From Anaeromyxobacteraceae bacterium (lineage in GTDB: Bacteria > Myxococcota > Myxococcia > Myxococcales > Anaeromyxobacteraceae): DNA of 64,000 bases. This document shows positions 19,588 through 58,600 of the stretch, in pieces. The stretch covers positions 256,001 to 320,000 of the forward strand of contig JASGHJ010000002.1 of NCBI GenBank assembly GCA_047602405.1, given 5' to 3'. Under the pieces are notes generated by a model, which was given only the letters and a program-made list of their open reading frames with translations, did not search any database and was not told where the DNA came from. Within the stretch, counting starts at the first letter, position 1. Each line of letters opens with the position of its first letter. A program made the position numbers and the translations under genes.

Positions 19588-22018
19588 GTGTCCATCTTCT
19601 CGCGCAACGACGATGGCAAGCGGGACGCAGGCAGGTCCACCCGGACCCTGCCGCTCCTCCCCCTGCGCGACATCATCGTCTTCCCGCACATGGTCGTGCC
19701 GCTGTTCGTCGGCCGCCAGAAGTCGATCGCCGCCCTCGAGCAGGCGATGTCCACCGACAAGGCCGTCCTGCTCTGCGCCCAGAAGAAGGCGAAGACGAAC
19801 GAGCCCGGCGCCGACGACATCTTCGCGACCGGCACGATCGGGACGCTCATCCAGCTCCTCAGGCTGCCCGACGGCACGGTGAAGGTCCTCGTCGAGGGCA
19901 AGCAGCGGGCCCGCGTGAAGCAGTTCCTCGACTCCGACAAGTTCCTGCTCGTCGAGGCCGAGGAGATCGAGGAGAACGTCGAGCGGACGGTCGAGCTCGA
20001 GGCGCTGATGCGCTCGGTGCACTCGACGTTCGAGACCTACGTCAAGCTCAACAAGCGCATCCCGCCGGAGATGCTGACGTCGGTGGCCTCCATCGACGAC
20101 CCGGCGCGCCTCGCCGACACGATCGTCGCGCACCTCTCCCTCAAGCTGAACGACAAGCAGTCGATCCTGGAGACCGAGTCGCCCACCGCGCGCCTCGAGA
20201 AGCTCTTCCAGCTCATGCAGGGCGAGATCGGAATCCTGCAGGTCGAGAAGAAGATCCGCACGCGCGTCAAGAAGCAGATGGAGAAGACGCAGAAGGAGTA
20301 CTACCTCAACGAGCAGATGCAGGCGATCCAGAAGGAGCTCGGCGAGCGCGACGAGTTCAAGAACGAGATCCAGGAGCTCGAGGAGAAGATCCGGACCAAG
20401 AAGATGTCGAAGGAGGCCACGCTCAAGGCGAAGAAGGAGCTCAAGAAGCTGAAGATGATGAGCCCGATGAGCGCCGAGGCCACCGTCGTCCGGAACTACA
20501 TCGACTGGATCCTGACGCTCCCCTGGGCCGAGTACACCGAGGACAAGCTCGAGATCACCGAGGCGGAGAAGATCCTCGACGAGGATCACTACGGCCTCAA
20601 GAAGCCGAAGGAGCGCATCCTCGAGTACCTGGCGGTGCAGAAGCTCGTCGAGAAGGTGAAGGGCCCGATCCTCTGCTTCGTCGGCCCGCCCGGCGTCGGC
20701 AAGACCTCCCTCGCGAAGTCGATCTCCCGCTCGATGGGGCGCAACTTCGTCCGCATCTCCCTCGGCGGCGTGCGCGACGAGGCCGAGATCCGCGGCCACC
20801 GCCGCACGTACATCGGCGCGCTCCCGGGGAAGATCGTCCAGTCGCTCAAGAAGGCCGGCGCCGGCAACCCGGTCTTCCTGCTCGACGAGGTGGACAAGAT
20901 GTCCACCGACTTCCGCGGCGACCCCTCGGCGGCGCTCCTCGAGGTGCTCGACCCCGAGCAGAACGCGACCTTCAACGACCACTACCTCGACCTCGACTAC
21001 GACCTCTCGAAGGTCATGTTCATCTGCACGGCGAACACCATGGGCGGCATCCCCCTGCCGCTGCAGGACCGCATGGAGGTCATCCGCATCGCCGGCTACA
21101 CCGAGCTCGAGAAGATCTCGATCGCCGAGCGGTACCTGATCCCGAAGCAGAAGGAGCTGAACGGCCTCGAGGGCGTCTCGGTCACCTTCAAGCGCAGCGC
21201 GCTCCGCTCGCTCGTGCAGCGGTACACGAAGGAGTCCGGCGTCCGCTCGCTCGAGCGCGAGATCGGCTCGAATCTGCCGCAAGATCGCGAAGGACGTGCT
21301 GAAGAAGGGGCTCGCCGACAGCCCGCAGTACCTCGTGACGCCGAAGCTCGTCCAGAAGTACCTCGGGCCCGAGAAGTACCGGTACGGCACCGCCGAGGAG
21401 GAGGACCAGATCGGCCTCACCACCGGCCTCGCCTGGACCGAGCTCGGCGGCGAGCTGCTCACGGTCGAGGCGCAGGTCATGCCGGGCAAGGGCAAGGTCA
21501 CCATCACCGGCAAGCTCGGCGAGGTGATGCAGGAGTCCGCCCAGGCCGCGATGAGCTACGTGCGCTCCCGCGCCGAGCTGCTCGGCCTCGACAAGCGCTT
21601 CCTCGAGAACGTCGACATCCACGTCCACGTGCCCGAGGGCGCCATCCCGAAGGACGGCCCGTCCGCCGGCATCACCATGGCGACGACGCTCGTCTCCGCG
21701 CTCTGCCGCCACCCGGTCCGCAAGGACGTCGCGATGACGGGCGAGATCACGCTCCGCGGCCGGGTGCTCCCCATCGGCGGCCTCAAGGAGAAGGTCCTCG
21801 CGGCGCACCGGGGCGGCATCAAGAAGGTGCTGATCCCGAAGGAGAACGCGAAGGACGTCCGGGAGATCCCGCGGAAGGTGCGCGAGAAGCTCGAGATCGT
21901 GCTCGTGGAGACCGCGGACGACGTGCTCCGCCACGCGCTCCGCCTCGAGCACCCGGAGGCGTTCCTCCGCAAGGCCGCGCCCGCCGAGGCCTCCTCCGAG
22001 GCGGCGGCGCAGGCCTGA
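19588..22018 (+). CDS. lon: endopeptidase La (Lon), apparent +1 frameshift at ~21271
   Basis: GTG after [39 protein letters not shown]; removing one A from TCGAATC restores EIGSICRK and joins ORFs 19447.. and 21296.. Confidence 0.95.
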
Positions 22019-22084
22019 GGCCGGCGCGGGGGAGGGGAACGCCACCCCGTGACGGTGGCGGTGCCTCGGGCCCGCCTCCGGGTG

Positions 22085-22372
22085 GCGTTTCCGATGGGTC
22101 GCCTCGCGGGGTCTCTCCGCTCCTCGGGCCCAGGGCAACGTCCCGCCGCGTCGGGGATCCTGGAGACGGCACCGAGCTGCTGGAGACCCGCGGCACCACC
22201 ACGTGCGCCATGCGAGGCGGGGAGCGTGGTGATGGGCGAACGGCGGTGACGAGCGCGGGCGGCATCGGCCGCCTCGCATGACACACTTGGTGCAGATCGC
22301 GGCTCCGATCTTGGGCGGGCCAGCCGTGGGCCCTGCGGTGCGGAGAGACCCCGCGAGGCGGCATGGGAAGCG
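22085..22372 (+). repeat. long imperfect-palindrome element, copy A
   Basis: Terminal arms GTCGCCTCGCGGGGTCTCTCCGC / GCGGAGAGACCCCGCGAGGCGGC; homologous to the reverse complement of 23365-23627. Confidence 0.85.
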
Positions 22373-55595: not shown

Positions 55596-55651
55596 ATTGC
55601 TGGGACCGGGGCCCCACCCCCGGTCCGGACCAAACTTCCCGGAGGAACCCG

Positions 55652-58600
55652 ATGAGCCGAGCCCTCGCCGCCGGCCTCGCCCTGTCGCTCCTGGCGGCGG
55701 TGCCCGCGCACGCCCAGCAGCGCAAGTCCGGCCCGGAGGCCGACCTCGGCGCGAAGCGCGAGGTGAGCCCCGACGCCAGCCTGCAGGGCAAGCTGGAGGG
55801 CAAGCGCAAGGAGGAGGGCCCGGCCGGCCCCAAGGTCGCCTTCGACCAGTTCCGCAAGGTCACCGAGGTCAAGATCTCCGAGAAGCGCGCCGAGGAGATC
55901 GCGTCGCTGCGCAAGCTCATCGAGCTCGGCGGGGGCGACGAGGCCGACATGCCCCAGTGGTACTTCCGCCTGGCGGAGCTCCTCTGGGAGGAGAGCCAGT
56001 ACTACTTCTTCGAGTCGAACCGCCGCGACGATCAGCTCATCGCGCTCGGCACCCGCGGCGACCCGCGCGAGATCGACCGGCTCATGGCCGAGAAGAAGGA
56101 GCTCGAGGGCCAGACCCAGAAGCTCCAGGTCCAGGCGGTCGCGCTCTACAAGGCCATCATCTCGAAGTACCCGAGCTACCCGCGGCTCGACGAGGTGCTC
56201 TACTTCCTCGCCGAGAACCTCACCCGCCGGAACAAGAACGACCCCGAGGCGCTCAAGGCGTACCGCGCGCTCATCACGAAGTTCCCGAACTCGCGCTACG
56301 TCCCCGACTGCTGGATGGCGTTCGGCGAGTACTACTTCGAGCGGTCGTCCACCTCGGACCGGGTGCCCAACCTCAAGCGGGCGCTCGAGGCCTACCAGAA
56401 GGCCGCGACCTACCAGGAGAGCAACGTCTACGGCTACGCGCTCTACAAGCAGGGGTGGGTGCACTACAACCTGAACGAGCACGAGCAGGCGATGGACATG
56501 TTCCGCGCCGTCATCTACTTCGGCGAGCTCCCCACCAGCACCGTCCCGGCCGAGAAGAAGCTCGCCCTCGTGAAGGAGGCCCGCAAGGACTACGTCCGCA
56601 CCTACTCCCACGTCGGGCGGCCGGAGGGCGCGCAGGAGGACTTCAAGCGCGTCGGCGGCGAGAACAACGGCTGGGACATGCTGAAGAACCTCGCCGACAT
56701 CTACTACGGCGACGCCAAGGATCCCGCCGCGATCATCGTCTACGCGCGGCTCATCCGCGAGAAGCCGCTCTCGATCGAGGCGCCGTTCTTCCAGTCGCGC
56801 ATCGTGACCTCCGCCGGCCGCATGGGCCGCAAGGAGGACGCGGTCCGCCAGGCGCACCGGTTCGTGGAGCTGCTCCGCGAGAATCGAGAAGGGCTCGCAG
56901 GAGGCGAGGACCGAGAAGGGCCAGAAGGCGCTCGCCGACGCGCGCGCCAACGCGGAGAACACGCTGCGCACGCTCGCGCTCAACTACCACATCGAGTGGA
57001 AGAAGACGCGCGACGAGCCGGTGGCCGGCTTCGCCGCCTCGGTCTACCGCGACTACCTCGACGTCTTCCCCGACGCGCCGACCGCCTACGAGATGCGCTT
57101 CAACCACGGCGAGCTGAGCTACGCGCTCGCCGACTTCCAGGGCGCCGGCGAGGAGTACGACCGGGTCGCGCTCATGGACGTGGCGAGCGTGGAGGGCAAG
57201 GTCCCGGGCCGCCCGAAGCCGGGCAAGCTCATGAAGGACGCCCTCGAGGCCTCGGTGTTCGCCTGGGACCTCGTGGTGAAGAAGCTCGACGAGACCGACA
57301 AGATCCCGCTCACCGACCCCCGCAAGCAGGTCCCGTTCGCGCCGCTCCGGCGCCGGCTCGTGGACGCCTGCGAGCGGTACCTCAAGTACCAGCCGGCCGG
57401 GGACAAGTGGGTCGAGGTCGCCTACAAGTCGGCGAACCTCCACTACCGCCACAACCAGTTCGCCGAGGCGAACGCGCACTTCACGCGCATCGCGCTCGAG
57501 CACCCGTCGCACGAGCTCGCGAAGTACTCCACCAACCTCGTGCTCGACTCCTACAACCTGCTCGGCGACTGGAGGAACGTCAACGCGTGGGCGAAGAAGT
57601 TCTACGCGAACGGCGCGCTCCTGAAGGCCCACCCCGCGCTGAAGGACGACCTCGCCCGCGTCATCGAGCAGTCGGCGTTCAAGATCGTCGAGCAGCGCGA
57701 GGCCTCGAAGGAGTACGAGCTCGCCGCCGAGGAGTACCTCGCCTTCTCGCGCGACTGGCCGGAGTCGAAGCTCGCCTCCACCGCGCTCTACAACGCCTCG
57801 GTCGACTACGTGAAGGCCGGCCGGCTCGACCGGGCGATGGAGGTGCGCGAGCAGTTCCTGCAGCGCTTCCCGAACGACCCGCTCGTGCCGAAGGCGAACT
57901 ACGACAACGCCGAGGCGTTCGAGGCGATCGCCGACTTCGAGAAGGCGGCCGACCTCTACGAGAGGTACTTCCGGGACTGGAAGCGGCAGCGCGACGGGGG
58001 CGCCGTGGCCGCCCGGCCCCCGCCGAAGGGGAAGAAGGGCAAGAAGGCCGCCCCGCCGCCCCCCGCCGCCGCGCCCGCCGGGCAGTACGAGGAGAAGAAG
58101 GCCTCCGACGCCCTCATCAACGTGGCGGTCTTCCGGGGCGAGCTGCGGGACCTCACCGGCGCGGAGGCGGCGATCACCGCCTACCTCGAGACCTGGCCGG
58201 AGGGCGCGGACGCGGCGAAGCTCTCGCTCGCCCTCGCCGACCTCTACCGCGACCAGAAGAAGCCCGCGTTCGAGCTCAGGCAGCTCGAGCTGCACCAGAA
58301 GAAGTACGCGGCCGACGCCGACGGGTGGCTCGCGATCCAGCACCGGATCGCGCTCCTCATGGAGAAGAACGGCAACGCCCGCGGCGGGCGCGAAGCGTAC
58401 GACCTCGGCCTCGCCTACTGGCGGCGCAACCGGGACAAGGTGAAGGACCGGGGCCTCGCGCTCGTCGCCCAGGCCCAGTACCTCGAGCTCGAGCCGGAGT
58501 TCGACGCGTACGACCGGATCACCCTCAACGTCGCGCCGAAGTACCTGAAGGCGCAGCTCGAGGTGAAGGCGAAGAAGCTCAACAAGCTCGAGGCCTCCTA

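Follow-up and report, generated by a model that had tools for sequence, protein, structure and literature searches.

Eight single-base insertions interrupt reading frames, among them those of lon and thrB, in the 64,000-nucleotide stretch of an Anaeromyxobacteraceae genome analysed here (the window; C2:256001-320000 in an assembly of 6.16 Mb on two contigs, C1 and C2, with 74% GC and 98% completeness), which raises the question whether these genes have decayed or have been misread. A first-pass annotation made from the letters of the window had placed all eight insertions at GATC and ascribed them to a DNA modification. The best overall explanation, which we regard as likely, is that they are consensus errors at two methylated motifs, GATC and GCTCTTC (GAAGAGC on the other strand), each with a nameable candidate enzyme. 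There is hardly any doubt that the extra bases are a consensus artefact, and methylation is very probably the cause of the errors. The genes of the window should almost certainly be treated as intact, the insertions representing a known kind of sequencing artefact at two motifs.

Insertions in the window

Homologues with names assign the genome to Anaeromyxobacter. The same-genus relative G010 was used as reference (92.5% identity over 1.96 Mb aligned, out of 2.4 Mb of G010 compared). Alignment placed the extra bases at 21270, 24578, 35025, 39117, 43401, 43683, 46594 and 56883, and a codon model, applied as a frame-switch test at each site, detected a +1 switch at 8/8 sites in this genome and 0/8 in G010, confirming the presence of all eight insertions in the assembly. 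Short-read contigs of close relatives (four runs) provided a second comparison: among the matches listed, the base at 21271 was missing in two of the four runs, that at 24578 in three, and those at 43401 and 43682 in all four. The sites concerned, with two base exchanges, were the following:

20230..20235, plus strand: lon, two-base swap without frameshift, GGAATC where relatives have GAGATC (G010, G008 and 3/4 short-read runs)
21270..21274, plus strand: lon (Lon_C), GAATC with an extra A at a GATC site (alignment, codon model, short-read contigs)
24575..24579, minus strand: amidase, GAATC with an extra base at a GATC site (alignment, codon model, short-read contigs)
26755..26758, no strand given: AATC where G010 has GATC, likely a G>A miscall at GATC (codon-model comparison)
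35017..35021, minus strand: open reading frame (ORF) with an SBP_bac_5 domain, GATTC with an extra base at a GATC site (alignment, codon model, Pfam)
39112..39119, minus strand: sigma54 activator, extra C after GATCT, the second class of GATC error (alignment, codon model)
43399..43403, minus strand: thrB, GAATC with an extra base at a GATC site (alignment, codon model, short-read contigs)
43677..43684, minus strand: thrB, GAAGAGGC, an extra G at GAAGAGC/GCTCTTC and not at GATC (alignment, codon model, short-read contigs)
46588..46594, plus strand: sigma54 activator, extra C after GATCT (alignment, codon model)
56881..56885, plus strand: TPR protein, GAATC where G010 has GATC (alignment, codon model)

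Five of the eight sites thus read GAATC/GATTC for GATC, as had been proposed and in agreement with G010, two read GATCT + C, and one lies at GAAGAGC. In the two sigma54 activators the extra bases had been seen to stand beside GATC, and they fit a class that recurs genome-wide. The GAGATC expected in lon near 20230 was likewise recovered in relatives. The attribution of all eight insertions to GATC stood for seven of them. The exception, at 43683 in thrB, had been considered repairable from GCATC to GATC; because G010 reads GAAGAGCATC (GAAGAGC) at this position and one G of the run at 43682 is missing from all four short-read runs, it was assigned to GAAGAGC, a second error motif. Positions within 7 nt of a GATC make up 9.7% of the window, which is the chance level. 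Two more +1 differences, at 33891 and 48215, were not attributable to either this genome or G010.

Domain and homology matches bore out the earlier gene names Lon_C, Amidase and thrB and those of the two sigma54 activators, and the TPR gene at 56883 fits the gliding protein GltD; the FG-GAP label was not borne out for the minus-strand ORF, which matches SBP_bac_5 in Pfam. Downstream of lon (window positions 22170-22400), an element of ~230 bp was found in at least 7 copies at 77-84% identity elsewhere in the genome, with few and shorter matches in G010.

Distribution of the errors across the genome

Over the 1.96 Mb aligned, 356 isolated non-triplet indels distinguished the assembly from G010: 126 broke the frame of this genome, 10 that of G010 and 5 neither, while 215 were non-coding or unclear. 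The 126 frame breaks comprised 65 at GAATC/GATTC, 18 beside GATC, 27 at GAAGAGC/GCTCTTC and 16 others, so that 110/126 fell at the two motifs, and GATC kept its rank as the main motif with the largest share. The enrichment of indels at GATC, proposed earlier as a check, was evident per conserved site, with +1 insertions at 134/9354 GATC (1.4%) against 104/26577 GACC (p = 6e-23). At GCTCTTC they occurred at 45/1002 sites (4.5%) against 52/12193 in its 21 one-mismatch variants (p = 4e-25), a per-site rate threefold that at GATC. A reference-free codon scan of the 6.16 Mb detected 301 +1 shifts, distributed over both contigs (180 GAATC/GATTC, 39 GATC, 53 GCTCTTC and 29 others; 272/301 at the two motifs), compared with 2 shifts in 2.4 Mb of G010. 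The motif counts are based on these coding-only and reference-free tests. A ranking of all 4-mers by nearby +1 indels was uninformative, AT-rich intergenic words coming top.

Substitutions relative to G010 were also directional, with 153 GATC>AATC/GATT against 11 in the reverse direction and 51 AGATC>GGATC against 18; no G>A/C>T excess was found at GCTCTTC in the same comparison. The GATC substitutions are unfiltered by selection, because they were balanced between strands (coding 61, template 55) and nearly as frequent in the phase where the residue must change (10/1113) as in the mostly silent phase (105/6376). Doubling of the A was commonest after AG (64/3968). The narrower motifs RGATCY and CGATCG were rejected, as errors occurred in most flank classes, with the exception of the nearly spared TGATC/GATCA.

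Consensus errors rather than mutations

If the insertions were real mutations at GATC and GCTCTTC, the genes would be pseudogenes or recoded. A search of the read index recovered none from this strain (best share 0.19), hence there is no direct disproof, and the net loss of GCTCTTC sites relative to G010 could reflect real avoidance. This alternative is nevertheless scarcely credible. In an essential-gene scan covering 60/105 fragments, rpoB, rpsD, secY, ffh, der, atpA, gap and carA were each found as a single locus split in two frames, and because rpoB, rpsD, secY, ffh and der are single-copy and split mid-gene, the breaks are best taken as consensus errors and not as pseudogenes, as the first-pass annotation had held. 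The broken genes that were checked retained 96-100% protein identity to G010 on either side of the break, and the lack of selection on the GATC substitutions argues in the same direction. As a separate observation, GCTCTTC was lost at 205 positions and gained at 137 (p = 3e-4), which may represent early site avoidance and, in part, a general CTC>CTG drift.

Three features by which methylation-induced long-read consensus error is recognised were found, namely concentration at motifs, G>A/C>T changes at GATC, and essential genes struck regardless of selection. According to the accessible portions of the published reports, native R10.4.1 assemblies show C>T/G>A errors with GATC as the dominant motif, 99% of calls being correct once the DNA is amplified (PMC11610603), methylated motifs are enriched in A>G/G>A errors (bioRxiv 10.64898/2026.01.14.699587), and errors at GATC, predominantly substitutions, occur in small numbers per genome, with six in Klebsiella pneumoniae (PMC12392509). 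As in these native Oxford Nanopore cases, the errors described here are confined to motifs, affect a minority of sites, and include G>A/C>T and A>G changes at GATC and adjoining it; they differ from the available portions of those cases in that +1 insertions run into the hundreds and roughly equal the substitutions in frequency. The nanopore platform itself we infer from the error spectrum. No report of assembly errors at GCTCTTC was found in the literature searched.

A DpnA-like methyltransferase as candidate writer at GATC

The genome contains the following gene:

C2:848179-849029 (848.2-849.0 kb): DpnA-like, beta-class DPPY methyltransferase of 283 amino acids (aa), single-copy and chromosomal

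In its protein, DPPY precedes FxGxG, the beta motif order. The G010 orthologue was 48% identical over 252 aa to the second methyltransferase of a three-gene system on Lactococcus pSRQ700 and 45% identical to a comparable Staphylococcus gene; these nearest annotated homologues sit in methyltransferase-methyltransferase-nuclease operons, and we take them to be DpnA-type enzymes (DpnA, LlaDCHI) that place N6-methyladenine (m6A) at GATC. The protein thus resembles the second methyltransferase of pSRQ700 in motif order, in identity and in size. No tblastn match to the partner alpha-class methyltransferase or the type II nuclease of pSRQ700 was found in the genome, so a DpnII-type operon is not in evidence. 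Unlike DpnII-like systems, the gene stands without either partner, is chromosomal and widely kept, in the manner of an orphan Dam or CcrM: at E 1e-50 it was found in 56/57 genomes of its own family and in 56/57 and 5/5 genomes of two other families, a survey that includes one hit from an unpublished genome (G142), and in 0/31 genomes of six further families.

From this sequence evidence, the DpnA-like enzyme probably writes GATC as m6A. The first-pass annotation had left the mark open among m6A, N4-methylcytosine (m4C), 5-methylcytosine (m5C) and phosphorothioate; of these, m6A has the highest probability, with m4C still in contention. It is possible, though on the unlikely side, that the artefact is the same and that the GATC mark is made by another enzyme or is m4C, including the case of the DpnA-like enzyme acting on cytosine. 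In a palindrome, G>A on one strand is C>T on the other, which makes m6A and m4C inseparable in a consensus, and the doubling of one or two bases ahead of the final C is alike in GATC and GAAGAGC; the insertion load also exceeds that of Dam-type cases in the available part of PMC12392509. Two other genes could be considered as writers:

C2:3747367-3749262: NPPF gamma-class methyltransferase-like ORF, ~630 aa, with 69-92% identity in 5/5 genus genomes tested, including G001
C1:160481-162217: NPPW ORF of Eco57I/N6_Mtase type; of five genomes tested, G010 alone gave a full-length match

The breadth of the NPPF gene favours this alternative. Against it, the family matches of the NPPF protein are weak (PF02384, E 1.7e-7) and nothing connects it with GATC, the NPPW protein is matched over its full length only in G010, and the DpnA-like protein shares 45-48% identity with enzymes of operons that combine a Dam-family methyltransferase, a second methyltransferase and a nuclease. 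The NPPW ORF also gave partial matches to ORFs of 1355-1363 aa in G001 and G018 and a weak similarity to DrmMI, and its frame seems broken near the end.

The DpnA-like gene itself reads as broken at two places in the assembly, one a GAAGAGC and the other a GATC site, and most relatives that carry it show no excess of AGAATC. Both facts would suit an explanation in which GATC is unmodified and is miscalled at 74% GC because base-calling or polishing had been tuned to Dam-methylated sequence, only GCTCTTC being modified. We consider this improbable, as the two breaks are precisely the two error types and are missing from G010 (97% identical DNA), and unmethylated, amplified DNA was 99% correct at such sites in the accessible text of PMC11610603. 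The gene that is the likely cause of the errors would be annotated as a pseudogene because both motif errors break it.

The AGAATC ratio was 4.1 in this genome and 3.3 in G001, compared with 1.39 in 11 other genus genomes pooled, and ranged from 0.26 to 2.4, varying with composition, in other genera and families. In G001, the DpnA-like gene is the sole N6_N4 match and the island methyltransferase described below is absent, which speaks for the DpnA-like gene. A frame scan of 68 kb of G001 gave five shifts, two at GAATC/GATTC and one beside GATC; the remaining evidence from this genome consists of word counts. A weak D12 match in G001 belongs to a separate island gene (L209:978-1794) that is split in two frames and adjoins an integrase-like ORF.

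The literature searched contained no account of GATC methylation for Anaeromyxobacter or Myxococcus, although REBASE and subscription papers, which were outside reach, may hold both enzyme assignments. The main text and six supplementary files of Blow 2016 (PMC4752239) make no mention of it, and the accessible portions of PMC12456177 and PMC11649196 contributed nothing specific.

Other modification genes

Phosphorothioate and m5C are disfavoured because no gene for either was found in this 98%-complete genome. DndC was found neither here nor in 18 genus genomes, no PAPS-reductase-family gene (DndC/SspD) was present in the genome (controls positive 14/14), and a search for DUF4007 (SspB) gave no match, its control equally giving none. 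The genome also lacked PF00145 cytosine-C5 methyltransferases (controls positive 9/14), any match to the Dam family (PF02086) over the cut-off, and the DpdA transglycosylase, with two canonical TGT matches only. The earlier suggestion to search for GATC methyltransferases or dnd/ssp genes was therefore productive for the former, with the DpnA-like gene as a candidate, and negative for DndC, Dam and m5C genes.

A phosphorothioate (GpsATC) or a hypermodification such as 7-deazaguanine could still be encoded in the unassembled part of the genome. Such marks are partial, and only 1-6% of sites err in a genome that is 98% complete on two contigs. The absence of DndC, of the PAPS-reductase family and of DpdA tells against it, as does the presence of DndC in 0/18 genus genomes even though G001 bears the same signature, and we consider this explanation very improbable. 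One further gene of methyltransferase type was recorded:

C2:2292362-2296156: NPPY methyltransferase whose C-terminal part is restriction-like, a fusion of type IIG appearance, with an apparent frameshift near the end

A fused methyltransferase and HNH island as candidate writer at GCTCTTC

The candidate for the second motif lies in a low-GC island rich in insertion sequences (IS):

C1:66000-95000: the low-GC island, which holds the fused methyltransferase and the HNH ORF along with an integrase and several IS21/IS630-like elements
C1:74422-77142: fused methyltransferase, 906 aa, with two motif-I/SPP[YF] domains
C1:90936-92198: HNH-type ORF, 420 aa
C1:71055-73716 and 87774-90435: identical inverted IS21-like copies, 2662 bp

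Because the IS21-like copies are identical and inverted and an IS630-like transposase in the island is split, an inversion appears to have separated the fused methyltransferase from the HNH ORF (~14 kb). In 26/32 related loci, an HNH homologue neighbours the homologue of the fused methyltransferase, mostly in convergent orientation. GCTCTTC is depleted in these 32 loci (21 seen against 54.6 expected; rank 5 of 8192 7-mers, a rank that overstates significance since the loci are mutually related) and is enriched ~1.8-fold in this genus. The fused methyltransferase had a full-length match in 0/18 genus genomes and none in the PDB. For the nuclease-like protein, structure matches were to HNH-type proteins only at E >= 0.16, Pfam HNH_5 was weak (E 0.014 in one of three homologues) and PADLOC gave no match; no homologue of the island proteins was named SapI or BspQI.

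We regard it as highly likely that the island enzyme is the writer at GCTCTTC. Its SPPY motif presumably indicates m4C, and the errors are concentrated around C2-T3 of the motif, but m6A would likewise be compatible with the A-doubling in GAAGAAGC. By its inferred site and domain layout, the fused methyltransferase with its HNH partner is probably a SapI-like restriction system. As far as the available text of PMC3017599 and PMC4081073 goes, GCTCTTC is the type IIS site (1/4) of SapI/BspQI, and the resemblance extends to the same asymmetric 7-bp site, as suggested by the error motif and the depletion in the 32 loci, to two methyltransferase domains, one per strand, and to a linked nuclease-like partner, 420 aa long, that bears an HNH-type signature. 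Unlike in SapI/BspQI as described there, the two domains are here fused in one 906-aa chain and the methyltransferase lies ~14 kb off the nuclease gene.

Proposed mechanism and points against it

In the mechanism that we propose, GATC would be carried as Gm6ATC, written by the orphan DpnA-like methyltransferase, and GCTCTTC would be methylated by the fused two-domain enzyme of the SapI-like system encoded in the C1 island. Methylation would alter the signal in the pore, and the consensus would err at 1-5% of sites, depending on flanking bases, either by doubling a base (GAATC/GATTC, GATCT+C, GCCTCTTC, GCTTCTTC) or by miscalling G>A/C>T, while the affected genes would be intact in the cell.

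Several observations weigh against this mechanism. The insertions number in the hundreds, compared with the few errors, mostly substitutions, in the accessible part of PMC12392509. TGATC/GATCA sites are nearly error-free on both strands (0/170, 1/398 and 2/682), which may be due to base-caller context or to a motif narrower than GATC. Eleven genus genomes, G010 included, carry the DpnA-like gene without an AGAATC excess, an absence that needs an explanation by platform or polishing. In the error-dense relatives G004, G009 and G012, only 1/41, 1/11 and 2/61 shifts were at GAATC/GATTC; any genus-wide signature is swamped there by random insertions. The NPPF protein is as conserved in the genus as the DpnA-like one (5/5) and is a rival writer at GATC. 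Finally, among solved structures the DpnA-like protein comes closest to CcrM (E 2e-58), an enzyme with the target GANTC, which it also resembles as a conserved orphan; unlike CcrM, it reaches 238 of the 830 bits of the NCBIfam CcrM cut-off, has 283 instead of 366 aa, and is associated with errors at GATC.

As an observation on these relatives, random frameshifts reached 51, 12 and 75 per 100 kb in G004, G009 and G012, respectively, including ribosomal, rpoB/C and ATP synthase regions, and may partly account for their low completeness figures.

Implications

This species-representative genome is estimated, by extrapolation, to contain 450-500 false +1 insertions (~345 at GATC and ~120 at GCTCTTC), rpoB and rpsD included, and claims of pseudogenes or recoding drawn from it are unsafe despite its 98% completeness. 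The kind of artefact is already known, and the links between enzymes and motifs are what we infer from it. If they are true, assembly errors alone, without raw signal, would suffice for reading motifs and assigning enzymes in deposited long-read genomes, an approach applied here also to the fused-methyltransferase/HNH family and GCTCTTC. For that restriction-modification family the analysis offers a target site, and for the myxobacteria a lead to a likely family-wide orphan GATC methyltransferase. There is about an even chance that Anaeromyxobacter and related myxobacterial families have their own Dam/CcrM-like housekeeping mark, set by a DpnA-derived orphan methyltransferase at ~33,000 GATC per genome.

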